Origin: a virus
Reading direction: 5' to 3' (one strand)
DNA length: 32,938 bases
UHGV virus genome: UHGV-2167056
How positions within the stretch are numbered: the stretch's first letter is position 1; the number at the start of each line of letters is the position of its first letter. Below the pieces are notes generated by a model. It ran no database searches, was not told the DNA's origin, and worked only from the letters and a program-made list of their open reading frames with translations. A program made the translations under genes and the position numbers. Shown here in pieces: positions 430 through 32,705 of the stretch.

Positions 430-951
430 ATGGAACTAAAAAATATAACCCGTTATTATCCTGAAAATATGCCATATGGTAATAATGTTCAGTATTTCCA
501 GAGTGAAGATGGTAAGGATTTCTACGAATCCCTGCCATTATTCACCAAAAAATATAAACTTTGCATAACCCCTGACAGCGGTGTTATCTGCTCAATATCA
601 CAGGATGCTTCGGCGCTGTATCCTGCGGGTTTTTCCGTTGTTGAGACAGACGAATTACCTGAAGGTACTGATATTTCAGGTAACTGGAAGTTTGATAATG
701 GTGTCATCTCACAACTCCCGGTTAACTATACCAAAAAAGCGGAAGCACTGCGCCAGTCATATCTTAATCAGGCATATGAAAAGATTAATGACTGGAGAAC
801 TGAGTTACAGCTGGGCACGATTAGTGATGAAAACAGAGCTGCGCTTACACGATGGATGAAATACATCAGTCAGGTGAAAAAAATGGAACTACCAGCGATT
901 AAAAACAAAGCTGAATTTGACGCCATTAAATGGCCGGAGAAGCCTGAATAA
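430..951 (+). CDS. Tail fibre assembly (chaperone) protein, U'-like, inside the invertible segment
   Basis: 173-aa ORF with a strong AGGAGG Shine-Dalgarno upstream; directly follows the alternative fibre cassette; Tfa-like size; AT-rich. Family assignment is by position and general resemblance. Confidence 0.6.
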   Translation: MELKNITRYYPENMPYGNNVQYFQSEDGKDFYESLPLFTKKYKLCITPDSGVICSISQDASALYPAGFSVVETDELPEGTDISGNWKFDNGVISQLPVNYTKKAEALRQSYLNQAYEKINDWRTELQLGTISDENRAALTRWMKYISQVKKMELPAIKNKAEFDAIKWPEKPE

Positions 952-1897: not shown

Positions 1898-2457
1898 TAA
1901 ATAGTCTCCTCTTCATGGCTGTTTGCATAAACGTAAATAAACGTCTGCCATGCAGGCTTATAACGGTTCAGAATACATTCCAGCGCACCGCCTTCATAAA
2001 TACGCAGCGGCGTGAGAATATCATCCAGCACATTCATATTCCGGTAGCCGGTTTCACTGTTAATCGTGACAATACTGACCCACTGCGAATCCGGTGAGGG
2101 CTGAATGTCAATCTGATAACCAAACTCCGCCGCAAACCGGATATAAAATTCACGGTTCAGCGAGGGCTTCATCCGGTATTTATTGCCGGCATAACGCTGT
2201 CGCTCCGTGAGGGTGGCTCCGGCCATATCACACTCGGGAAGCCCGAGATAACGCTCCCAGTCTTCCAGCAGCAGGCGCGACGTGTCAGGGAAACGCTCGG
2301 CAAGCAGCTGTTTACCCGTCCAGGATACACGCGCTGTCGAATGACTGAGGCCCAGACATAATGATGCCAGTACGGATGACGGACGCTTGTCCCATGCCAG
2401 CCCGTCAGGCAGTAACTGCAACAGGGCGCGCTGATGTGGGGTCAGGGTTACAGCCAT
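1897..2457 (-). CDS. Tail/baseplate protein, Mu gp48-like (DUF2313/YmfQ-like)
   Basis: 186-aa ORF at the position of Mu R between baseplate J and the tail fibre; translationally coupled. Confidence 0.6.
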   Translation of the reverse strand: MAVTLTPHQRALLQLLPDGLAWDKRPSSVLASLCLGLSHSTARVSWTGKQLLAERFPDTSRLLLEDWERYLGLPECDMAGATLTERQRYAGNKYRMKPSLNREFYIRFAAEFGYQIDIQPSPDSQWVSIVTINSETGYRNMNVLDDILTPLRIYEGGALECILNRYKPAWQTFIYVYANSHEEETI

Positions 2458-3967: not shown

Positions 3968-4574
3968 TCTCCGGCGCTCCTGTCTTACTGCCTTTGCCGT
4001 TATCCTGATGCACATGGCCGGAATAGGTGATCCCGGCAATAACGGCATCAGACATCGTGAACAGCCCGTCTGATTTACCTGTACCATCAAGCACGAAATT
4101 ACCCTTAACATGCAGGTTTTTATCCACCGTCACATTGCCCGTAAAGGTGGCCTCCGGCGTATCCACCCGCATCCCCTCATCGGCGTAAATCTCCAGCATT
4201 TTGCATGTCACAATAATGCGACCATCCTTTGTTAACCGTATCCGGTGCCCCTCATGGTGATACACCCCCGTATCTCCGGCTGTGAGTCCGGTCGGGCGGC
4301 TGCGCCGGTCTTCCACCACAAGCACCACAATCTGATCCCGCTGTCCGCCCAGACAGGCAAAAAAGGTTTCCGCACCCGGCAGGGGAACGCTGATCTGCCC
4401 GTACTGCTGGGGACGCTCCACATCATCAAAGGTTTCGCCGTCCATGCCGGTGAGCTGCACATTCTGCATTTTCAGTTCGTCATGTGTGCCGGTCAGAACG
4501 CCCCGGCCAAACAACAGGCGAATACCGCGCGTTACCGGGGCAATCAGGCGGCTGAACACTTCATCATTCATCAA
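3960..4574 (-). CDS. Baseplate assembly protein V / spike-like (Mu gp45-like)
   Basis: 204-aa ORF; position and size match phage baseplate V family. Confidence 0.65.
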   Translation of the reverse strand: MMNDEVFSRLIAPVTRGIRLLFGRGVLTGTHDELKMQNVQLTGMDGETFDDVERPQQYGQISVPLPGAETFFACLGGQRDQIVVLVVEDRRSRPTGLTAGDTGVYHHEGHRIRLTKDGRIIVTCKMLEIYADEGMRVDTPEATFTGNVTVDKNLHVKGNFVLDGTGKSDGLFTMSDAVIAGITYSGHVHQDNGKGSKTGAPENG

Positions 4575-5688
4575 AGCTGATCCCCTGTTTTTTCATCTGC
4601 TGGCGAATAAAGGCATCAACATCGTCACCGGAACCACCCCGGCCCTTACTGTCCGGCTCTGCCGGAACGATAAAGCCGTCACGCGGTGCCAGTACCAGCC
4701 GGGTGACTTCCCCGTTATGTTCATCAAGTAAAAACTCCACCTGACAGACCAGCAGTTCAGTCTGTTCTATACCGAAACGCAGGGCTGAAACACCGGTCAG
4801 CAGATTGACATCCCATAACCGGCCATCATCCCGGAACCAGCCACGCACGGTGGCAGAAAACCGTTCTGAACGGGCAATCGCACGGCGCATTTCACGCAGG
4901 GCACGCTGCCGTGCACCGGTGGTGTCTGTCTGTTGATCGGCGAGGATGATTTTCGGCCGGTAGCGGCCGATCTGCTCATCACTGATGACGCCCACAGGTG
5001 CTGCCAGACGGGCGGCGGATTCGCTGTCTCCCCGTTTGCCACCACCGCGCCCGTGTCCCCGGACACGGTATTCGCTGTATCGTCCTCGCCAGTCCGTGTT
5101 GTAATCGGCATCAAGCAGGTTATCTCCCAGCACCAGTCTGTCCGTCTGCTGGCTTCCTGCCTGGGTGAACACCAGATCGCCGTCAGCATTACTGGTCACC
5201 AGCACCCCGCGATGCCGGGCAGCACGGGTCAGCGCATCCGCCACGGTTTCTGAGTTTTCCAGCGTAAAAGAGCTGAAGGGGCGTGCAGCCGTGTCGTCGT
5301 TAACCTGCCAGCGCACGGCTATCCCGAAGGGCGCACATAAATCTGCGGCAATCTGTGCCAGCGTCCGGTTGCGCCACTGGCTGCCGGGATGGATGGCGGC
5401 ACAGTCCACCAGGTCGCCGGTTTTATCCCGACCGCTGATGCTGATCTGATGACGGGTTGCACTGATCCGCTGACTGACCTGATCCAGCCAGCCACTGATG
5501 ACCGTCTGCCCGTTAATTCTGAGCGTCAGGGACTGACCGGTTCGCAGGGCTGAGGGGATGCGCTCACCGGGCAGCATCAGCCCCAGTTCAAACGACCCGG
5601 CCAGATGCTCCAGCGAGCGACGGACGCTGACCGTCAGCCAGCCGGAAAAAATACTGCCACCGATATACAGTTCAATCCTGCTGCTCAC
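4564..5688 (-). CDS. Tail protein, P2 gpD-like / Mu P (gp44)-like
   Basis: 374-aa ORF between the N-like and baseplate genes. Confidence 0.65.
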   Translation of the reverse strand: MSSRIELYIGGSIFSGWLTVSVRRSLEHLAGSFELGLMLPGERIPSALRTGQSLTLRINGQTVISGWLDQVSQRISATRHQISISGRDKTGDLVDCAAIHPGSQWRNRTLAQIAADLCAPFGIAVRWQVNDDTAARPFSSFTLENSETVADALTRAARHRGVLVTSNADGDLVFTQAGSQQTDRLVLGDNLLDADYNTDWRGRYSEYRVRGHGRGGGKRGDSESAARLAAPVGVISDEQIGRYRPKIILADQQTDTTGARQRALREMRRAIARSERFSATVRGWFRDDGRLWDVNLLTGVSALRFGIEQTELLVCQVEFLLDEHNGEVTRLVLAPRDGFIVPAEPDSKGRGGSGDDVDAFIRQQMKKQGISFDE

Positions 5689-7030: not shown

Positions 7031-9074
7031 AGTTCCCTCCGTTCCAGACGTTCACATCCAGGCCATGCTGTGCGGTATCATCCACATCAATACTGCGCGC
7101 CCGCCAGCCTTCAGGGGCCACAAGCTCCACCCGTGCGGCGGTTTTCGCGGTGGCCTGTCCGCCGTTTTCGTCACTGCCGCCACGCAGTTTCTGCCAGGCC
7201 TGCGTCAGCCAGCCCCCCAGATAATCACCGAGATAGCTGCCCACCGTGGAACCAATGGCAACCCCGACCGGACCAGCAGCCGCCCCCAGCGCGCCACCGG
7301 CGATACTTCCGGCAAGGGAACCCACGGCACCGGCTTTATCGGCTGCACTGGCGCTGCTGTCCAGCAGTACAGGAGCCGCCATGGCACCGGCCCACAGGGC
7401 ACCACCACCCAGCCGACCGGCACCACGGAACAGCCCGGCAAAACGCCCCAGCCCCATGCGGTTTCCGGCCGCCGTTAGCAGACCACCGGCACGGCTCATC
7501 ATACGACCGAAGAAGCCCTGTTTACCGGCACTCTCCGCCAGTTGCTCACCGGCAGTCACGATGGTCGTGACACCCCGTCCACGTCCGGGGCCGCGTTTTT
7601 TACGGCCGCGCACGATTTTGCCGTCACCGCTGACCACCACATCCCCGCCACCTGAGGCCAGGCCACCCGCAGGCCAGTTGGTGACCAGCACGGGCTGAAC
7701 GGCAGCCGGATTTACCCCGGTAAGGAAATTCAGGAACCGGCCAGCGCGTCCGGGCTGCGTTCCCGGCACAGTGGTCTGCGGTTTGCGGAAGGGCGACGTC
7801 AGCACGGAGGTCATCGCCATGCCATAGCGTAAGGGGGTTGCGCCGAGACGTAATGCCCCCGTCCCCGCAAACCTGAGCACCTTCAGCGCACGGGAGGCGA
7901 GATACATATACATCAGGTACTTTGCGGCGGTCTGCGCACCCTGACCAATGCGATCCAGCGCATCGCCATAACCGGCGTCGCGCAGTGCCTGAAGCGTTTC
8001 CCTGACTTTCTGAATGACCCGGTAAAAGCCGGTCGCAGCGTCTCTGGCATACTCAAATCCCTGATTCAGAGCTGAGGCCGTCTGTGTGGCCAGCTTATCC
8101 TGTAAGCCGCTTTTCTGTGCCGCATCGGCATAATCCAGGAAGCCTTTCAGGCTCTTTTTCAGGCTGTCAAACGGTCCCTTTGCCATCACCTCGCGGGCAA
8201 ATCCGTCCCAGACGTCGCCCATCATGGACGTCATTCCCGTCCAGGAATTCATGGCGTTTTTCTGGGCACCTTTTGCCTGTTCGGCCATCACCTGAAATAA
8301 CAGGCGAATGCTGTCCGGCCCCAGTTTTCCTTTTTCGCCTTTCTCACGGATGATCTTCTGGTTTACGCCCAGCTTATCGGCCAGTAACTGGTAAACGTTA
8401 ATCCCGTATCCGGTCAGAATATTGGCGTCCGCTGCCTGGATACTCTGGCGGGCAAACATCTGTTTGAGTTGCAGGGACGCACCCTGTGCATCTGACAGTG
8501 ACCAGCCGTGATAGCCGCCCTGATCCTGAAGCATGGTAATAAAGCGACGGGCTTCCCTGTCACTCATGCCAAACCCGCGACTGGAGGCGTATTCCTGCAT
8601 AACCCCCGCCAGCCCCCAGGTGGTGTCTTTGGCGTTCTGTACTGCCCAGGCTTTCACTGCTTCCGTTTTTGCCGTATCGCCATGATTAATGGCGTTGAGA
8701 CGCAGAATATAGTTCTCCATCTCTGCGGCCGGGCGGATAAAGGCTTTATTAAAACCGTAGACCGCAGCCCCTCCCGCCAGCATCCCGTAAAGGTTGCTTA
8801 TCCGCCCGATGGTGCCGGTAATGCTGCCCTGCAGGCGGTCAAAATCTGACGTTACCGTGCGGATGCTGCCACGAACACCGGCAAGCGTTCGCTGCATACG
8901 GGAGCCGACAAGTTCTGTTTCCTGACCGGCCCGGCGGGCTGCATTTCCAAGACCACCCAGGCCTGTCCTGCCGGAACGGGAGAACGCCCCCAGCTCCTGT
9001 GACCACTGGCGGGATTTGGCGGAAATATTGCCGAGTAAATCGACAATCAGGGAGGCTTTCAGGTTTTTTGCCAT
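7017..9074 (-). CDS. Tail tape measure protein (Mu gp42-like)
   Basis: 685-aa ORF, largely low-complexity, with a Gly/Ala-rich hydrophobic segment near the C-terminus; located after the tube and chaperone genes. Confidence 0.8.
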   Translation of the reverse strand: MAKNLKASLIVDLLGNISAKSRQWSQELGAFSRSGRTGLGGLGNAARRAGQETELVGSRMQRTLAGVRGSIRTVTSDFDRLQGSITGTIGRISNLYGMLAGGAAVYGFNKAFIRPAAEMENYILRLNAINHGDTAKTEAVKAWAVQNAKDTTWGLAGVMQEYASSRGFGMSDREARRFITMLQDQGGYHGWSLSDAQGASLQLKQMFARQSIQAADANILTGYGINVYQLLADKLGVNQKIIREKGEKGKLGPDSIRLLFQVMAEQAKGAQKNAMNSWTGMTSMMGDVWDGFAREVMAKGPFDSLKKSLKGFLDYADAAQKSGLQDKLATQTASALNQGFEYARDAATGFYRVIQKVRETLQALRDAGYGDALDRIGQGAQTAAKYLMYMYLASRALKVLRFAGTGALRLGATPLRYGMAMTSVLTSPFRKPQTTVPGTQPGRAGRFLNFLTGVNPAAVQPVLVTNWPAGGLASGGGDVVVSGDGKIVRGRKKRGPGRGRGVTTIVTAGEQLAESAGKQGFFGRMMSRAGGLLTAAGNRMGLGRFAGLFRGAGRLGGGALWAGAMAAPVLLDSSASAADKAGAVGSLAGSIAGGALGAAAGPVGVAIGSTVGSYLGDYLGGWLTQAWQKLRGGSDENGGQATAKTAARVELVAPEGWRARSIDVDDTAQHGLDVNVWNGGNYGLY

Positions 9075-22959: not shown

Positions 22960-23460
22960 TCAGACTTTCGGCAAATCGTAGCGACACAACCATTCATCCG
23001 CCGAACGGCGGGCCTCAAGACCGGGGAGTTTTACCCCCTTTGAATAAATCCAGCGGATATACTGCTTACAGGACCCGGGCATCTGCCCGGCATTGATAAG
23101 GCGCAGGAGCGTGGAGTTGCGAAAGTTCGTTTCACCGGCCCAGAAAATCCAGGAGGCCAGCGCCACCGTCTGACCACGGGTAAGCGGCACCTGAACATGA
23201 CGATCGATAGCCGCAAAGGCCCATTTCATGTCCTTTTCCAGCAGCTCCAGACATTCTTCATCAGTTTTTGTCATCCCCGGTTTCACATCCGGGCCGGTAT
23301 GGCCGTAACAGATGGTGGGGGTGCCGGTGGGATCAATGTACGTGGTGTTTTCTTTCCCTTCCCAGTAGCCGGTGTAGTGCGTGGCAATGGTGAACGTCCC
23401 GGCTCCGGCCAGAACAAGGGCAATCAGCTTTTTACGCAGGGGTGCGGGGAGTTTTGGCAT
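22960..23460 (-). CDS. lys: SAR-type endolysin (T4/P21-type lysozyme, Mu Lys-like)
   Basis: 166-aa ORF with an N-terminal Gly/Ala-rich weakly hydrophobic segment (LIALVLAGAGTFTIA) and a catalytic E-x8-D-x5-T arrangement (YWEGKENTTYIDPTGTPT). Confidence 0.85.
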   Translation of the reverse strand: MPKLPAPLRKKLIALVLAGAGTFTIATHYTGYWEGKENTTYIDPTGTPTICYGHTGPDVKPGMTKTDEECLELLEKDMKWAFAAIDRHVQVPLTRGQTVALASWIFWAGETNFRNSTLLRLINAGQMPGSCKQYIRWIYSKGVKLPGLEARRSADEWLCRYDLPKV

Positions 23461-23531: not shown

Positions 23532-23954
23532 TCAGAAAAGCCGTGGCTGCGTGCGTTCCTGATGCAGGCGACGCTGGTTGCGGATAACGGAGTAAATCTG
23601 CGTCTCTGACATCTGGTAGTGGCGGCGCAGGGTTTCAATTTTTTCGCCCTGGCTCCAGCGGGAAAAAATTTCATTATTGCGCAGTTCGGTGAAAAGGGAT
23701 TCACCGACCGGGAGATAATAACCACGCCCGCCCATGTACCCGGCCTGTGCGGCTGCAACCTTACGGGCAAGCATTCCCGCCTGAGCAGGTTCAATCCCCT
23801 GACGGTGCAGTTCAGCACTGATCACATCAACCAGGTCCCGCAGCGTGCCGGGCCAGTTCTTTTTCAGCTCATCATCAGGAATATCATCCAGACGGTCAAT
23901 CAGCGCGTGCAGCTGTTCGCTGTCACCAAACATGCTCATCTGTGTTTCAGCCAT
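23532..23954 (-). CDS. Mor/C-family transcriptional activator
   Basis: 140-aa ORF whose C-terminal half (GGRGYYLPVGESLFTELRNNEIFSRW...IYSVIRNQRRL) has the Mor/C-family pattern. It sits between gemA-like and lys, where Mu has mor and C. Confidence 0.75.
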   Translation of the reverse strand: MAETQMSMFGDSEQLHALIDRLDDIPDDELKKNWPGTLRDLVDVISAELHRQGIEPAQAGMLARKVAAAQAGYMGGRGYYLPVGESLFTELRNNEIFSRWSQGEKIETLRRHYQMSETQIYSVIRNQRRLHQERTQPRLF

Positions 23955-24024
23955 ACCCGCCTCCGGTCATCATTACACAGGGCAAGTTTAAAATAAAAAT
24001 CCCGCGCTGTGGCGGGATTTGGGG

Positions 24025-24537
24025 TTAAAAGGGGGAGGATTCTTCATACAGCCTGCAAACGCGCTCATAACTCATCACTGTACGCGCTGACATCCCCAGC
24101 ACATCCAGCATCTTGCGGCGGTGCCAGCGTTTGAGACGCTCCAGCACATCAGAGGCCAGCGCGGGGTGTTGTTCCAGCCACTGCCAGTTAGCCACACCTT
24201 CGCCGCCGTTCTGAGCGGCCGTCTGCGATTTCACCCAGCGGTTAAGGGCTGTTTCCCCGCCATCAGAGATAAAGCCCTGCCGGTGCATCACCTTCCAGAT
24301 GGCGCGAATTTTGGCGGTCACCGTACCCGGTTTTAAGGCCCGGTTAACCGGCTTCTGACGCACTTTAAAACCGCGTTTTTTGAAAACATCCAGCACGCGG
24401 GATAACTCATCCGGTGACATATCCCGGCAACTGGGTTTGCCGGTGGCTGCCAGTAGTACGGATGTGTAGGTCTCATGGTCAAGCTGTAGATCGCGTTTTG
24501 CGACATGTATTAAGGTAATCAGGGAAGCGCGATTCAT
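24025..24537 (-). CDS. gemA: GemA-like protein (Mu gp16 family, DUF1018)
   Basis: 170-aa ORF immediately upstream of the Mor-like gene, as in Mu. Confidence 0.7.
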   Translation of the reverse strand: MNRASLITLIHVAKRDLQLDHETYTSVLLAATGKPSCRDMSPDELSRVLDVFKKRGFKVRQKPVNRALKPGTVTAKIRAIWKVMHRQGFISDGGETALNRWVKSQTAAQNGGEGVANWQWLEQHPALASDVLERLKRWHRRKMLDVLGMSARTVMSYERVCRLYEESSPF

Positions 24538-24601
24538 TATCGTGTCTCCGTAACAACAGGCGGCATGGCAACGCCGCCCGGATAAAACTAAAGGTATCGA
24601 T

Positions 24602-25012
24602 ATGAAAATAGATTACGATGAAGTATTAAGTATTCTCACAACTTTTCAGGATGCTGAAACACCTTTCCTTACACTACAGGATCTGGGCATGGCTGAGGCA
24701 GAAGGAGAGGAAAAGGATAAAAAAGTTTTTCATCTTATGCTTCTCGCTGATAATGGCTCAATTGTTAATGGTGATATGCGGTCAGAAACACCAAAATATA
24801 TTGGTTTCTTTTTTCATTCTCTGGGCGTTGGTTTCAGAAACACGCCCATTATGCTTACTCAGCAGGGGCATGATTTAGCTAACGCCCTGAGAAAAAAACC
24901 AATCCTTGAAAGAATCAAAAAGGAGTTTACAGACGCGCCATTTGATCTAATCAAAGAAGTTACCAAATCAATGTTAACCAGGTTCGTCAAAGAACGTATT
25001 GGGATTGACTAA
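24602..25012 (+). CDS. Opposite-strand accessory gene, DUF2513-like small protein
   Basis: 136-aa ORF on the plus strand in an AT-rich stretch. LTQQGHDLANALR and FHLMLLADNGSI resemble the DUF2513 pattern as I recall it. Its 3' end overlaps the 3' end of a minus-strand ORF. Confidence 0.5.
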   Translation: MKIDYDEVLSILTTFQDAETPFLTLQDLGMAEAEGEEKDKKVFHLMLLADNGSIVNGDMRSETPKYIGFFFHSLGVGFRNTPIMLTQQGHDLANALRKKPILERIKKEFTDAPFDLIKEVTKSMLTRFVKERIGID

Positions 25013-25282
25013 ACAACTTAATTCAGCCAGTAATCGCAGGGCGGCGACAGCCGCCTGCTTGTCACTTCTTTTAGCTATTTCCGCAAGGGTATGCACAATC
25101 CATAACGGACTTAACGCTACGGCTGAATCCAGAATCATGTCATCCATAATAATTTCTGGCATATCCCGCTTGTCACATTCTTTATCCATAAAAGAAACGA
25201 ATTTTTCAGCATCTTCCGGTTTCATCCCTCCGGCGATAAGGATTTTGCGATATTCATAAGACGATCTTAATTCAATACTCAT
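24974..25282 (-). CDS. Hypothetical protein (AT-rich accessory gene)
   Basis: 102-aa ORF, AT-rich codon usage unlike the phage core. Confidence 0.4.
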   Translation of the reverse strand: MSIELRSSYEYRKILIAGGMKPEDAEKFVSFMDKECDKRDMPEIIMDDMILDSAVALSPLWIVHTLAEIAKRSDKQAAVAALRLLAELSCLVNPNTFFDEPG

Positions 25283-25297
25283 TATTCACCTGCCTGC

Positions 25298-25690
25298 TTA
25301 ATCTGTTTCCAGTGCTTTGCTACGAGCTATAGCCTCACATTCAAAAAATACCGACTCCGGCACGCGCCCTTTTAATTCACGAACAAGGAAGTCATTAACG
25401 CGTTCATGACGTCTTATATTTCTTTCCTTTTCCTCCTGGCGCAATACAGCAAGGCGGTATTCAACAGCCCGGCGTTGTTTCTGAAAGACAGCCAGTGCTT
25501 TTCTGGCAGCATTACGCCATGCATCATCGCCACATGGTGCGTATTCAAGCTGAAATTTAATCTCTTCAATAGTTTCTTTGATTTTTGCCAGCAAGCTAAG
25601 ACAGTCGCTTATTGTCTCCAGCTTTTCATTATCAATATAACTTCTCACGCATTCACCTCCCGTAATTCCGGTAAAGCCGAAATATGACAC
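25298..25690 (-). CDS. Hypothetical protein (charged, coiled-coil-like)
   Basis: 130-aa ORF; start uncertain (overlaps the upstream gene by 46 nt). Confidence 0.4.
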   Translation of the reverse strand: MSYFGFTGITGGECVRSYIDNEKLETISDCLSLLAKIKETIEEIKFQLEYAPCGDDAWRNAARKALAVFQKQRRAVEYRLAVLRQEEKERNIRRHERVNDFLVRELKGRVPESVFFECEAIARSKALETD

Positions 25691-25974
25691 CAGTGCGTCA
25701 CCTGTCCGTCTTCATCTTCAAGGCAGGCTCCGGTTTCTTCATCAACAAAAAAGCCTTCATACCCCATATGGCCGATGCGCAGCTCCTGACGGTGACCATA
25801 CTGAACAATCAGCACGACAGCCTCCATATCAGGTGGGAAAGCATCATTCAGTGAATGCCAGGGATAACCGCGTAAATCCCCGAAATAAACACCGGTCAGC
25901 GTTCCGCCACAGAGCGGCATTCCGGCGGCACACACAAGAGGTTCATCTGATTCAACAAATAAGGTCGTTATCAT
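25645..25974 (-). CDS. Hypothetical protein, DUF551-like C-terminus
   Basis: 109-aa ORF whose C-terminal VTHWCHISALPE resembles the THWMPLP signature of DUF551 proteins found in prophage early regions. Confidence 0.4.
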   Translation of the reverse strand: MITTLFVESDEPLVCAAGMPLCGGTLTGVYFGDLRGYPWHSLNDAFPPDMEAVVLIVQYGHRQELRIGHMGYEGFFVDEETGACLEDEDGQVTHWCHISALPELREVNA

Positions 25975-26522
25975 GGCGTTAACTCCCGTAATACAGCGTC
26001 CTCGGCAGTCCGGCGACGGTAATAAACTGCGTGAGCAGAATGTTCAGATATTCCAAACTTTTCGCCAATTTCCCGGAATGACAGACGGCGTGGGTAATCG
26101 GAATCACGCAGCGCACGTATAAGACGTACATCATCATCAGATATGCGCGTGCCGGGGCGTAACTCTCCGCACTTTGTTAATCCAGCACCAATCATTCCTG
26201 CCCGACATCTGACAGAATCTTTATTACGTCCGAGATATTCTCCCATTTGCTGGCAGGTCATTGTTCTGGCATTGTTTCGAATAAACTTATCTTCATCAGG
26301 TGTAAATCTTGGGTGTTTATATTTCAGTAACTCCGGGTATGAACTGCGCAATACACCAGTCCGGTTATATACAGCCCAGACAGTTCTTTTTATTCTGGCA
26401 GCAATATCCTTAACCGGGGTGGATGAATAAAGCGCAATCAGCAGCGCATCTTCTTCAGGTGTCCACGGACGGACATGAGCGGGGGCGCGACCTTTTCGCC
26501 CCATGGGTTGTAAAATCATCAT
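25971..26522 (-). CDS. Putative DNA-binding protein with three Myb/SANT-like helix-turn-helix repeats
   Basis: 183 aa with three repeats of the same pattern: RPWTPEEDALLIAL...IAARIKRTVWAV, then RFTPDEDKFIRNN...MGEYLGRNKDSVRCR, then ISDDDVRLIRAL...REIGEKFGISEHSAHAVY. Confidence 0.5.
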   Translation of the reverse strand: MMILQPMGRKGRAPAHVRPWTPEEDALLIALYSSTPVKDIAARIKRTVWAVYNRTGVLRSSYPELLKYKHPRFTPDEDKFIRNNARTMTCQQMGEYLGRNKDSVRCRAGMIGAGLTKCGELRPGTRISDDDVRLIRALRDSDYPRRLSFREIGEKFGISEHSAHAVYYRRRTAEDAVLRELTP

Positions 26523-27719: not shown

Positions 27720-28250
27720 TTATTTATTCAGTCCGGCGTCCTGTTCAAAAGGCTCGACATAAAAACTTTCAGCGCCTTTATTCACCTTGATACCGGCAAT
27801 GCCTTTCACAGCATCCGGCTCCGCCAGGACGGCTTCCTTGTTCACTTCCTCTTTCGTGCGGATGAAACGCTCAAGCCCCATACGGCGCAGCATTTCAATC
27901 ACACCTTCCACATCACGGCTGACGCTGCATGATGGCGTTCCCAGCCGCCATGACACCGTTCCGGTGGTCAGATTGGCTGTTTTGGTTTTGCCGCCGTTCG
28001 TCAGCTCATCACGGTTGGTTTTGCACCAGTCCTGAATCCCTTTAAAAAGCACTTTGATTTGCTTTTTAAGATTTTCAATCTGCGGCGTATAACGGGCGGT
28101 GATTTCTGCCACTTCGTCATTCATCGCCGTTTCCAGGCGCAGCGCCTCTCGCTGAATATCTCCCAGGGTGCGGATATCACGGCTGACTTCTTCCCGGGTC
28201 TGCGGTGCCGCCTCGGCTGCGGCCTTTAATTTTGTAACGCGTTTAGCCAT
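27720..28250 (-). CDS. gam: Host-nuclease inhibitor Gam (Mu Gam / Ku-like DNA-end binding)
   Basis: 176-aa ORF, Mu Gam-like in size and sequence character, at the expected position in the early operon. Confidence 0.85.
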   Translation of the reverse strand: MAKRVTKLKAAAEAAPQTREEVSRDIRTLGDIQREALRLETAMNDEVAEITARYTPQIENLKKQIKVLFKGIQDWCKTNRDELTNGGKTKTANLTTGTVSWRLGTPSCSVSRDVEGVIEMLRRMGLERFIRTKEEVNKEAVLAEPDAVKGIAGIKVNKGAESFYVEPFEQDAGLNK

Positions 28251-29378: not shown

Positions 29379-29606
29379 TTAGCTGACTTGTTTCGCACCA
29401 ACAGAACGGCATATTCCGCTGTAAACTTCTGTCGCACCTTCGCGATCAAGTCCGGCAGATATCACCATTCGTGTGCGGTCATTAAATTCAAAAAGTAAAT
29501 CGCCACATTCTTTATTTTCGGCCAGTGAAATCACCTTCACGTTATCGAAATTAACCAGGTAAAAGCGTCCGTAAATATCAGGAATATTAAATACCGCCAT
29601 AATCAC
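29379..29606 (-). CDS. Hypothetical small early protein at the position of Mu kil
   Basis: 75-aa ORF immediately downstream of B with a 4-nt overlap; the assignment is positional only. Confidence 0.4.
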   Translation of the reverse strand: MIMAVFNIPDIYGRFYLVNFDNVKVISLAENKECGDLLFEFNDRTRMVISAGLDREGATEVYSGICRSVGAKQVS

Positions 29607-30544
29607 ACCTGTGAGAGTAATTCAGGGTTGGTATAAACCTCTTTAAAGGCCGCATTAATATGTTTTTCTGTCAGCGCCGCGCCTTCACCGCTGGCGGTGA
29701 GCCACGCCTGGTTAAGCGTATGTGTCAGAACGCGTAACGCTCCCGGTTTTTCAGCGATAGCCTGCATGACGGCCAGCTCGGCCTCACCACTGATACCCCA
29801 TGCCCTGGCAATGGCCAGCACATCCGCCTTTTTAGCCTTGCGAAGTTGTTTTGTACGGGCAAGACGACTGAACAGGCGCGATAAGTCATCAACGGCGCGG
29901 CGTCCACCCTTAAACAGTCCGCGCGGGTTACCAATAAGCACCATCCCGATCCCCGTGGCGTCCTGGATTGCACGCAGTTGTTCCAGACCGTCAATACCCA
30001 GATGATCCGCCTCATCCACAATCACCAGCCCACGCGTTCCCGTCAGGCGACGGCGGATGGCGCGGGATAACGCCCCCTTGTTCGCGCGGGTGTAATCAAT
30101 CCCCAGCGCATCGGCCAGCTCCAGCAGACACTCCGTGACGCTGGAGTGCGCGGGTGACAGGGTGATCATCCAGGTGTTTGGTTGCTCCTGGCAGTAATTA
30201 CGGGCAGTGGCCGTTTTACCCACACCCGGTACGCCCACAATAACGTTAATACAGCCCATCAGGCGAACCGCCTGAAACAGTGCGCGCAGCTCCTGGACTG
30301 TCTGAGTTTCCACAAACTGCGGCGGTTCCGGCAGTGCGCTTTGTTTATTCCAGTTCTCATACCAGGAGCGCAGGGAAGCAGCCACAGCAGCGTTATCGCC
30401 TTTATATTTTCCCTTACGGAAAGCCGATAATGTGCCGTCGGAAATTCCCGCCTCTCTGGCGATGGCATACTGCGTCAGTACGCCGCCATCAATAAGTTCA
30501 TCAATGGTCTTGATTACATCGTTAATATCGGTCATATTATTCAC
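29603..30544 (-). CDS. B: DNA transposition ATPase MuB-like (AAA+ target-DNA activator)
   Basis: 313-aa ORF; N-terminal HTH-like region resembling the MuB N-terminus (DGTLSAFRKGKYKGDN); Walker A GVPGVGKT; Walker B-like VIVDEADHL. Confidence 0.9.
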   Translation of the reverse strand: MNNMTDINDVIKTIDELIDGGVLTQYAIAREAGISDGTLSAFRKGKYKGDNAAVAASLRSWYENWNKQSALPEPPQFVETQTVQELRALFQAVRLMGCINVIVGVPGVGKTATARNYCQEQPNTWMITLSPAHSSVTECLLELADALGIDYTRANKGALSRAIRRRLTGTRGLVIVDEADHLGIDGLEQLRAIQDATGIGMVLIGNPRGLFKGGRRAVDDLSRLFSRLARTKQLRKAKKADVLAIARAWGISGEAELAVMQAIAEKPGALRVLTHTLNQAWLTASGEGAALTEKHINAAFKEVYTNPELLSQV

Positions 30545-30617: not shown

Positions 30618-32705
30618 TCAGGCCAGCGGATCACTTTCTTTTAATTTCGCTTCGAGCAGTTGCAATCCCCGCTGGAAATTACGCTCGTATTCTTCATCAG
30701 GTTCATCGTCAGCGACCGGTTGCTGAACGGTCACCGTATTACCCACAGGGCGGTATATGTTTTCCAGCCAGGGCTCCTGCGGCTTGTGCTCCAGCACGTT
30801 GACAACCTCATCCTCGGCATCACGGATTTTTTCCTCTGCGCGTTTACGCATGCCTTTAAGGCGCTGCTGCTGTTTGTAGTATTCCGCGCTGACAGGGAAG
30901 GCTTCGCGTTTATTGCCGTCCCATACCGCCTCGCAAATCACGCTGCCATCCGGGCGGCGCACGGTAATTCGTTCGGCATCATGAATGTCATAGCTGATAA
31001 GTACCTTACGGCCATGCTCGTCACGCAGCTCGGGCGCGTAGTAAATATTATTCAGCCAGCGTATTTCACAGCGTCTTACAGGGCGCTCCACCATCGGCCG
31101 GAACATATCCCGCAGTTCAACATCGGACAGCCATTCAATTTCCGTGTCCTCTTCCGCCAGGCGTTTTTTTCTGAACTCCGCCGGGCTGTAATGTTTACCG
31201 TTCGGCTTCATGGGTAATTCATCGTGCGGCCGGTTGTTGTACCACTCAACACCGTCACGAATGGCATCAATCAGTTCAGACCAGGACGGTAAATCACGCA
31301 TCGCTGACTGCTGCCGGGCGTTCAGCCGTTTGCCCTGTTGCAGGGCACTGAATGCCGAGCGTAAATCGCGGTTGGTTTTACGTAACGTCTCGCGATCTGC
31401 TCCTTTCCCGAAATAGGTGCGGTATTTACGGGCTATGCGCATCGGTAATGTGCGGTTAAGCCGTTCGATAATGCCCCGTCCCTGCGGATTACCGGCAATC
31501 CCTGTCGGGTGATTAATCCCCAGTCGTGGCAGTATCCCCACAATCTCCTTATCCAGGACGTCGGCGGTTTCCCCGGAGCCATTATCCGAGTAATACAGAA
31601 ACGGTTTGCCATGATGGCGAATACCGTGCTGTATGGCACCGGCTACGGCGAAAACATTTTCAGCCAGGTCAAGGCTCCAGCCCACCACAAAGCGCGTGCC
31701 ACCGTCGATAACAAAGGTCACTTCCGGTGCGAATGGCCGCCCGTGAACCGGGTGCGCGCATTTCAGCTTCATGCCGTGACCGTCACCAATCCAGACATAA
31801 TTCACCGGCATTCTGGACCAGTCGCGGCGCGTGAATCCCTCAAGCTGACGGTATTCACTGCCAGTTACCCGGCCTTTTTGTTTCACCACTTCCGGCAGTT
31901 TCTTCATTGCGCGGCGAATGGTGTCATAAGAGGGCATGATATCGAGCATATAAGGCTCATCAGCGTGCCGGTGCTGCCATTCAGCAACAAAATCCTCGTA
32001 AGCCTCGGTCATTGGTCGGCCGTTTGACTGGCGATGCTGCGCCAGAAATTCGGGCAGCCAGTTAATATCTTCGGCTTTTATTTCCTGGCGTTTACCCGGT
32101 GCCAGTAAAAGCAGGCGTTCAGCGGCGTTCTGTGCCTTGTTAAAGGCCGCAATCCAGCGTTTCAGCGTGATTTCACTCAACGCACGGCTGTTTCCCTTTT
32201 TGGCGTTCGCCGTCTCAACCATTGCCACAATGCGCTCGTCCAGTTGCGAACGTGCCAGGTTGTCAACGATAAACCGGATAGCCTTCGCACAGCTGAAACC
32301 AGGTTGTTGCGCGACTTTCAGAACTTCGCTGACGATCGCGATTCGTGCATCAGCCACCTGGCGCTGGTTTTCAGTCAGGGCATTGAGGCGTTCGACCATC
32401 AGTTGTGGTGATCCGCGATATGCCTCCACCGCATCAACCACGGCAGACGAGCGTCTGGCCTTTGTCACCACCGGAGCCGGTGATTCATCGGCTTTTTGCG
32501 TCATCAGTTGCAGGGCATAACGTTCGCGTAATGCCTGCTGTGTCACTTCAGGTAAACAGTCAATGCTGTATTCAAAACCTTTAGCGCCTTTCTTGCGGCG
32601 TCTGCTGGTTTCGCTGGTTGCATACTTCCTGATTGAATAGCGAACGCCTTGCTCCGTTCCCGGCATCCCCGGTAATCCAACCAGTTCTTTGACTGAAGCA
32701 AACAT
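30618..32705 (-). CDS. A: DDE transposase MuA-like
   Basis: 695-aa ORF; N-terminus (VKELVGLPGMPGTEQGV) resembles the MuA enhancer-binding domain; immediately downstream of ner. Confidence 0.9.
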   Translation of the reverse strand: MFASVKELVGLPGMPGTEQGVRYSIRKYATSETSRRRKKGAKGFEYSIDCLPEVTQQALRERYALQLMTQKADESPAPVVTKARRSSAVVDAVEAYRGSPQLMVERLNALTENQRQVADARIAIVSEVLKVAQQPGFSCAKAIRFIVDNLARSQLDERIVAMVETANAKKGNSRALSEITLKRWIAAFNKAQNAAERLLLLAPGKRQEIKAEDINWLPEFLAQHRQSNGRPMTEAYEDFVAEWQHRHADEPYMLDIMPSYDTIRRAMKKLPEVVKQKGRVTGSEYRQLEGFTRRDWSRMPVNYVWIGDGHGMKLKCAHPVHGRPFAPEVTFVIDGGTRFVVGWSLDLAENVFAVAGAIQHGIRHHGKPFLYYSDNGSGETADVLDKEIVGILPRLGINHPTGIAGNPQGRGIIERLNRTLPMRIARKYRTYFGKGADRETLRKTNRDLRSAFSALQQGKRLNARQQSAMRDLPSWSELIDAIRDGVEWYNNRPHDELPMKPNGKHYSPAEFRKKRLAEEDTEIEWLSDVELRDMFRPMVERPVRRCEIRWLNNIYYAPELRDEHGRKVLISYDIHDAERITVRRPDGSVICEAVWDGNKREAFPVSAEYYKQQQRLKGMRKRAEEKIRDAEDEVVNVLEHKPQEPWLENIYRPVGNTVTVQQPVADDEPDEEYERNFQRGLQLLEAKLKESDPLA

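Follow-up and report, generated by a model that had tools for sequence, protein, structure and literature searches.

Morons, in the sense of Juhala and Hendrix, are independent transcription units that have been added to a phage genome. An example is gp15 of HK97, an exclusion moron, and the transposable Pseudomonas phage Fc02 carries two genes, olg1 and olg2, that lie beside the repressor on the strand opposite to the early lytic one, overlap a lytic-strand gene, are transcribed in the lysogen, and cause superinfection exclusion (PMC9936078). Here, we focus on a gene of comparable orientation in the virus genome UHGV-2167056, an E. coli/Shigella Mu-like prophage in which nearly all genes lie on the minus strand. 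The whole stretch of 32,938 nucleotides (nt) that was analysed is referred to as the window. The gene in question lies on the plus strand in an AT-rich tract of about 1.1 kb next to gemA, from which it is divergent, and encodes a protein of 136 amino acids (aa) that belongs to the DUF2513/phrog_585 family.

We consider it fairly probable that the AT-rich 1.1 kb is a cargo slot of the semi-essential early region, and that it holds an inverted, self-contained, moron-like accessory gene for an acidic winged-helix protein that is expressed mainly in the lysogen. The gene must be transcribed in the direction opposite to that of the early genes. Because it faces the early promoter head-on, it would need a promoter of its own, which would be weak or factor-dependent and active mainly when early transcription is off, as in the lysogen. 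After induction, the converging early transcription would silence it. The 136-aa protein would be a small, probably dimeric regulator that binds DNA or protein and benefits the lysogen, for example by exclusion or by control of host or phage genes; it would not be one half of a toxin-antitoxin pair. The annotation of the protein as a DUF2513 protein is existing knowledge. New are the predicted fold, the variable slot at the junction of the early genes and the gemA-mor ('gem') unit, and the conserved inverted placement across Mu-like phages, and the novelty is modest.

The variable AT-rich segment and its alleles

An earlier note, made by eye from the sequence, had described 24540-25700 as visibly AT-rich, and the calculation bears this out. 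The tract has a GC content of 0.422 and does not match the phage average: the window as a whole stands at 0.547, its late region at 0.572, and the early region outside the tract at 0.515. Only 0.53% of all 1161-nt stretches have a GC content this low, and the others lie at the extreme left end of the window. By gene, the values are 0.384 for the plus-strand gene, 0.417 for the 102-aa minus-strand gene that follows it, 0.430 for the next gene, and 0.554 for gemA. The base composition of the plus-strand gene, at 0.384 against 0.554 for gemA, is thus as deviant as is expected of a moron.

The segment is mosaic and its contents differ from prophage to prophage. The DUF2513 version occurs in only 6 of 232 carrier genomes found among 5426 complete E. 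coli genomes. Compared with the common O157-type allele, homology ends at 24510, in the first codons of gemA, and restarts at 25038, within the 102-aa gene; in that allele phrog_17269 and phrog_2358, two small genes on the minus strand, stand in for the intervening 527 bp (24511-25037). As only part of these otherwise collinear phages have it, with junctions at 24510 and 25038, the gene again behaves as a moron would. Compared with the alleles of strains SCU-106 and M3, homology restarts only at 25657. Therefore, the variable segment extends from 24511 to 25656, which is almost exactly the AT-rich tract singled out before, and it consists of two sub-modules, 24511-25037 with the DUF2513 gene and 25038-25656. 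In other alleles the replacement spans the whole of it, from ~24511/24557 to 25656, and the phrog_6158 gene of the second sub-module is missing in SCU-106 and M3.

Across E. coli Mu-like prophages the slot has at least four alternative contents, each of them AT-rich, and two besides that of the window include plus-strand genes. Since GC content is 0.42-0.43 in four different alleles, as against ~0.55 for the adjoining gemA-mor genes, AT-richness is a trait of the slot itself and not just of this cargo. As judged from the allele junctions, the slot is exchanged by recombination among prophages, and the homologous exchange sites are gemA and a hairpin of the form GGCGGC-GACA-GCCGCC (25040-25055) that is made by the codons of a conserved AAVAAL motif in the 102-aa gene. 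In protein alignment the 102-aa protein is accordingly a chimera, in which an O157-type part (residues 1-82) is joined at AAVAAL to 20 C-terminal residues of the kind that accompanies DUF2513, with the DNA junction at 25038. This hairpin occurs also in alleles without DUF2513. Its folding has a z-score of -1.8 on the plus strand and -2.5 on the minus strand, and among the related loci compared at window positions 25037-25058 (L002, L004, L006, L018, and L022), GGCGGC-N4-GCCGCC shows synonymous compensatory G:C to A:T changes in two lineages and single mismatches in three. The idea that the two GGCGGC...GCCGCC hairpins flanking the plus-strand gene are the ends of a cassette was rejected: the left one is the gemA leader of phage Mu, the right one consists of the AAVAAL codons, and both are present without the gene.

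The plus-strand genes of the other two alleles are unlike the one studied here. In SCU-106 (L045; NZ_CP053234.1) the slot holds an unrelated 79-aa gene at 2109-2348 (+); its distance to gemA is 70 nt, and it shares 20 nt with a minus-strand gene homologous to Mu gp14 (E15). In M3 (L044; NZ_CP010183.1) mor and gemA are separated by another unrelated plus-strand gene, of 113 aa (811-1524); it has an AT-rich upstream region of 339 nt and is flanked by two copies of a terminator-like hairpin, AAATCCCGC-N6-GCGGGATTT, so that it has the look of a textbook moron. Both genes were considered as remote DUF2513 relatives, and this was rejected (hhalign probability ~2% or less).

The DUF2513 gene, its family, and the predicted fold

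The plus-strand open reading frame (ORF) is a genuine gene. The three minus-strand frames opposite to it all have 5-13 stop codons in the window; a small family profile, searched exhaustively with HMMER, collected 251 representative clusters of relatives, nearly all of 130-145 aa; and relatives occur in places where all neighbours share the strand of the gene. Together with the structural model described below, these observations effectively refute for the window the scarcely credible alternative of a chance or shadow ORF whose information lies on the minus strand. What speaks for that alternative comes from one Klebsiella phage, Kp4866-3 (L043), in which the minus frame over the DUF2513 gene is free of stops and forms a 149-aa ORF (4925-5374 (-)) that begins where the 102-aa gene stops and ends where gemA starts. 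It is this ORF that is probably the shadow; if used, it would restore translational coupling. The plus-strand gene is preceded by a Shine-Dalgarno-like motif, and homologous loci have a purine-rich AAGGA or GGAG at the equivalent place and keep an ATG or GTG start.

The protein matches PHROG family phrog_585 over its full length (E 1.1e-17; residues 1-134 on profile positions 1-126 of 128), as does its homologue in a Shewanella Mu-like prophage. Against Pfam DUF2513 (PF10711) it scores 23.3 bits (E 8.5e-5; residues 2-111 on model positions 1-96 of 100), which does not reach the curated gathering cutoff of 29.6. Yet 91 of its 119 aligned relatives match DUF2513, the best with E 9.2e-15, and RefSeq labels the near-identical WP_000687317.1 'DUF2513 domain-containing'. 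Therefore, the earlier description of the protein as DUF2513-like stands, in the sense that it is a divergent member of the DUF2513 superfamily and not a clean Pfam member. No NCBIfam model matches it. Longer members of the family, scanned with Pfam for fused domains that could hint at function, contain only DUF2513 and YjcQ.

Two incomplete copies were met in other genomes. In L015 (IMGVR_UViG_2619619134_000013) a 93% identical copy at 1731-2078 has an apparent frameshift near a run of seven A (window 24892-24898) that shortens the product to 115 aa, and may be a pseudogene, a sequencing error, or a case of slippage. In an E. coli chromosome, NZ_CP145714.1, 93 nt without any annotated feature (242482-242574) are 100% identical to window positions 24538-24630; they cover the gemA leader and the first codons of the plus-strand gene and are possibly a prophage remnant.

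Homology search and structure prediction, both proposed as checks in the earlier note, give the protein a family and a fold. With the family alignment as input, the AlphaFold2 model of the 136-aa protein has a predicted local distance difference test score (pLDDT) of 97.1 and a predicted template-modelling score of 0.89; with four sequences, the pLDDT is only 64.7. The high-confidence predicted fold is a winged helix, like that of MarR, PadR, and TubR. The top Foldseek matches are all MarR-family proteins, and they are weak (E 0.02 or worse, template-modelling score ~0.4, identity 10-19%). Neither the protein itself nor the family profile, used as queries for sequence searches of the PDB, found a meaningful relative, and a viral fold library yielded nothing of use. 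The family consensus, FHxxLLxDxxLI ... PxRLTxxGHDF, in which H44, G68, R84, and G89 are near-invariant, can be read as the usual pattern of the end of a recognition helix and a wing. In contrast to the winged-helix proteins of the MarR, PadR, and TubR type, the second helix of the helix-turn-helix is apparently a loop in the model (residues 24-34), and the family is acidic. The conserved wing arginine R84 speaks for DNA binding, whereas the putative recognition helix is hydrophobic and net-negative, which with the acidic isoelectric point (pI) speaks against strong binding. From the model, DNA binding by the 136-aa protein is plausible.

The acidity of the family also fits a different role, that of an anti-defence or host-takeover factor in lytic growth, in which the small protein would bind a host or defence protein and not DNA. 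Its location in the semi-essential early region is in line with such a role, as this region of Mu-type phages holds host-interference genes such as gam and kil (PMC4553209), and so are the integron, prophage, and plasmid contexts of its relatives, which are typical of arms-race genes. However, the orientation of the gene opposes the early operon and is wrong for a function needed early in infection. PADLOC-DB 2.0 has no match at E 0.1 or better for the 136-, 102-, 116-, 109-, or 183-aa proteins, no known defence or anti-defence family was matched in the libraries searched, and the viral fold library was of no help here either. We regard this role as improbable.

The placement of the gene is conserved over a wide range of divergence. 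In the Mu-like phages examined, the DUF2513 gene is always opposed to the early genes and directly upstream of gemA or mor. In enterobacterial lineages, whose proteins are 45-54% identical to that of the window, it is divergent from gemA at a distance of 29-66 nt and overlaps the 3' end of a phrog_1988 gene by 30-39 nt. Phage Kp4866-3 (31% identity) has the same arrangement with an overlap of 29 nt. In a Shewanella algae prophage (32%) the gene is divergent from gemA and has another 3' neighbour, with no overlap, and in prophage locus L037 (23%) it lies directly upstream of mor. Since slot and inverted orientation recur at 23-54% identity, the gene did not arrive by a recent random insertion. 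In L037, a 267-aa protein (4033-4836 (-)) encoded immediately downstream of the inverted gene has two Mor-domain matches and is a duplicated or fused Mor.

Members of the family are found in other elements as well. Vibrio-type relatives are single-gene integron cassettes bounded by attC-like repeats: in L036 (2500-10405) and L032 (2400-6500) they stand in arrays of small co-directional ORFs with attC-like repeats of ~70-140 nt between them, and by this layout the arrays are chromosomal integron cassettes; that of L036 adjoins a tyrosine recombinase. In a lambdoid Klebsiella phage a relative lies between the lysis cassette and the terminase, and plasmid relatives include one on a non-mobilizable IncFIB Klebsiella plasmid of ~108 kb, with matches on six more Klebsiella plasmids of 109-111 kb. 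Judged from these contexts, integrons, lambdoid phages, and plasmids are further vehicles in which the family travels as cassettes of one gene. In 15 of the 15 loci examined, the GC content of the gene is below that of its flanks. A scan of genome contigs added a single locus, in Edwardsiella. A distance tree was computed for the question of one or several acquisitions by Mu-like phages, and its distances are saturated.

Expression signals, the gemA leader, and the convergent overlap

Several observations weigh against a moron-like gene for a lysogen regulator. No sigma-70 promoter above background was found upstream of 24602 with a consensus tool and our own weight-matrix scan, both applied to both strands; the best weight-matrix score is 6.4, as against a background median of 6.6 per 300 nt. 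The promoter prediction that the earlier note had called for thus came out negative. The terminator scan called no canonical terminator downstream of the gene, and the hairpin at 25040-25055 has no U-tract; it is possible that it acts as a non-canonical stop for plus-strand transcription. Because neither promoter nor canonical terminator was detected, two classical hallmarks of a moron appear to be missing. The family has a median pI of 5.3, with values below 7 in 96% of members, which is unlike a strong DNA binder. A slot and an orientation that are kept down to 23-32% protein identity suit a gene that has long been resident, and is possibly functionally integrated, better than one that hops freely. 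Lastly, a literature search on DUF2513, on YjcQ in this sense, and on WP_000687317 brought up no study of function, and the lone mention of DUF2513 was unrelated.

The moron proposal of the earlier note therefore holds as far as an accessory, swappable, and compositionally deviant segment is concerned, but not as to a promoter above background. Consensus scans may be blind to weak or activator-dependent promoters. Since no promoter rises above background, it is the orientation of the gene only that argues for expression in the lysogen. The weight-matrix scan found no promoter position common to the homologous loci, and nothing consistent on the minus strand upstream of gemA. Inspection by eye identified no Mor-type binding site upstream of the plus-strand gene; a dyad at that place, with 6-bp arms around an 8-nt spacer, does not resemble the Mor site of Mu. 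An Rfam scan of 23900-26000 gave only a chance match to a microRNA family (E 0.38).

The position of the slot becomes clearer by comparison with phage Mu (AF083977). Mu has the same genomic position, the gap between gene 54 and gemA, with a leader hairpin and the gemA ribosome-binding site as in the window. There, however, the gap is an empty 105 nt, whereas in the window an inverted gene lies 64 nt from gemA, and the sequence upstream of the hairpin is not conserved. In Mu, the hairpin GGCGGTGTTGCAGCACCGCC (8193-8212) lies inside an annotated 'semi-early promoter' feature (8151-8217) and is followed by the gemA ribosome-binding site. In the window, the gemA-sense RNA of the leader hairpin has a 10-bp stem followed by UUGUUAC. 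The 64-nt spacer folds on the minus strand with -20.4 kcal/mol (z = -2.0), as against just a 6-bp stem on the plus strand. The hairpin is also present in L004, Kp4866-3, and SCU-106. Between the window and Mu, it shows one compensatory change (T-A to C-G) and one change from G-C to G-U that pairs only on the gemA-sense RNA; as five related sequences are too few for statistics, this is counted as homology and as a hint of constraint at the RNA level. After the hairpin, the gemA-sense RNA has a weak U-rich tract in the window and a good one in L004 and SCU-106. The hairpin could serve either to stabilise the gem transcript at its 5' end or to attenuate read-through from the early promoter.

Homology with Mu thus places the slot at the boundary of the early operon with gemA-mor, a unit for which Mu has a separate annotated promoter. 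The earlier note had put the tract within the early operon; it does adjoin the early genes, but by this homology it stands between them and gemA-mor. Such a place, at a boundary of transcription units as opposed to the middle of an operon, offers a plausible reason why inserts are tolerated. The gem operon of Mu is reportedly expressed constitutively and is said to be a case of lysogenic conversion, as the title of Paolozzi and Ghelardini (1992; reference 71 of PMC3820752) has it.

This location gives rise to the main rival explanation, in which the gene is a dedicated regulator of the phage late switch. The divergently encoded winged-helix protein would bind the gemA leader palindrome (24557-24580) or nearby DNA and, with head-on transcription and the ~436-nt untranslated gap that the gene leaves in the early transcript, would gate gemA-mor and so late timing. 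Many regulators of the MarR/PadR type are encoded divergently from their target. The gemA/mor unit is the only neighbour that is kept at every level of divergence (45-54%, 31%, 32%, and 23%), and the spacer to gemA is short (29-70 nt) and contains a dyad. Overlapping genes, presumably with translational coupling, are found in the O157-type allele; the window allele breaks this tight coupling, and its early transcript would have to traverse ~436 nt of untranslated antisense RNA before gemA. However, close as well as distant relatives of the gene stand alone, without gemA or mor, in integrons, a lambdoid phage, and plasmids, and most E. coli relatives of the prophage lack the gene. Because Mu and SCU-106 carry the hairpin without a DUF2513 gene, it does not accompany the gene as a cognate operator would, and lineages with a 29-30-nt spacer carry a different palindrome. 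We consider a dedicated late-switch regulator rather unlikely. It is likewise doubtful, and to be expected with low probability, that the inverted winged-helix gene and the Mu-type leader hairpin together form a conserved gate between the early operon and gemA-mor, in which the ~400-440-nt untranslated gap, head-on transcription, and a DNA-binding protein encoded at the junction would together set how much early transcription reaches Mor, the activator of the late genes. If such a gate existed, it would tune the threshold of induction or the timing of lysis, and the gene would be a new regulatory layer in transposable phages and not a passenger.

The 3' ends of the plus-strand gene and the 102-aa gene converge and overlap. 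Both ORFs and their overlap, which is exactly 39 nt, are as the earlier note had described them. An overlap of 29-39 nt is kept in all enterobacterial Mu-like lineages with both genes, whose plus-strand proteins are 31-54% identical, and the C-termini of both proteins are conserved. The overlap encodes a Lys-rich protein tail on one strand and a Phe-rich tail on the other. Mutual coding constraint explains the conservation, because a Lys codon, read on the opposite strand, specifies Phe or Leu. A toxin-antitoxin or antisense-controlled exclusion pair with RNA-RNA control via the 39 nt, a kind of interplay that the earlier note had raised, could also be suggested by the conserved overlap and by the 102-aa protein, whose C-terminal tail changes type according to whether the plus-strand gene is present. 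The overlap is, however, accounted for by dual coding, and each gene is widespread without the other, with homologues of the 102-aa gene alone in >200 E. coli genomes. Neither the 136-aa nor the 102-aa protein matches any toxin, antitoxin, or defence family profile. Type II toxin-antitoxin pairs are normally co-directional operons; the two genes here are convergent, unlike a module of that type. A pair of this kind is very unlikely.

Gene map and comparison with known systems

The features of the locus and the main landmarks of the prophage are listed in Table 1. RefSeq annotation of 99%-identical E. coli prophages agrees with this layout; in one of them gemA is named 'gp16 family protein'. 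The second AT-rich minus-strand gene had been taken as 130 aa. An ORF of that length exists (25298-25690 (-)), but its alignment to phrog_6158 begins at residue 15 and RefSeq calls a 351-nt gene for the phrog_6158 member of a 99%-identical prophage, which makes the 116-aa gene at 25298-25648 the more likely one.

Table 1. Features of the variable segment and landmarks of the prophage (window coordinates).
Feature	Coordinates	Strand	Basis or remark
DUF2513/phrog_585-family gene, 136 aa, slot cargo	24602-25012	+	ORF list; phrog_585 match
Shine-Dalgarno-like AAAGG	24590-24594	+	7 nt upstream of the ATG of the plus-strand gene; read from the sequence
Variable AT-rich mosaic segment	24511-25656		between conserved gemA and conserved 109-aa gene; blastn junctions against five other alleles
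GC-rich leader hairpin	24557-24580	-	just upstream of the gemA ribosome-binding site; homologous to the phage Mu hairpin
Convergent dual-coding overlap of two genes' 3' ends	24974-25012		39 nt; from ORF coordinates
102-aa early gene (phrog_1988)	24974-25282	-	phrog_1988, 8e-38
Hairpin GGCGGC-GACA-GCCGCC	25040-25055		formed by the AAVAAL codons; right-hand mosaic junction
116-aa early gene (phrog_6158)	25298-25648	-	phrog_6158, 3.1e-54; AT-rich, in the variable segment
Transposase A	30618-32705		
B	29603-30544		
Gam	27720-28250		small early genes next in transcription order
gemA (gp16 family)	24025-24537	-	first gene of the gemA-mor unit; Pfam GemA 2.8e-28, phrog_286
mor	23532-23954	-	
Lysozyme	22960-23460		late genes beyond

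The plus-strand gene of the slot is not the sole convincing one in the phage, as had been claimed. The ORF at 430-951 (+) encodes a tail-fibre assembly protein (Caudo_TAP, 1.1e-20) and opposes the minus-strand tail genes. The left end around it is AT-rich as well (GC 0.38-0.44). By analogy with the G region of Mu, this ORF may be part of an invertible host-range segment.

The analysis gives the uncharacterised DUF2513/phrog_585 family, which is spread over prophages, integrons, and plasmids, a high-confidence predicted fold and a precise genomic niche. It also locates a hot spot of recombination, where opposite-strand cargo is exchanged, at the junction of the early operon and gemA-mor in the Mu-like prophages of E. 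coli/Shigella. If the protein were an exclusion factor or a gate for Mor, the slot would be useful for finding more functions that are expressed in the lysogens of transposable phages.

Among known systems, the morons of temperate phages are similar to the gene of the window in that they are extra genes, present or absent between conserved genes, with a deviant composition; its transcription, like theirs, would be independent of the surrounding operon. Relatives of the gene also occupy a classic lambdoid accessory site, between lysis genes and terminase. It differs from morons in having no recognisable promoter or terminator, and in a conserved slot and orientation, which is more like a long-term resident. 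Integron gene cassettes are a second point of comparison. The Vibrio-type relatives are single-gene cassettes with attC-like repeats, whereas no attC-like repeat lies beside the gene of the window, where exchange proceeds by homologous recombination. The olg1 and olg2 genes of Fc02 share with it the setting in a Mu-type phage, the strand opposite to the early lytic operon, and the overlap with a lytic-strand gene. They lie beside the repressor and not beside gemA, and are unrelated in sequence; in Fc02, transcription and phenotype have been measured.

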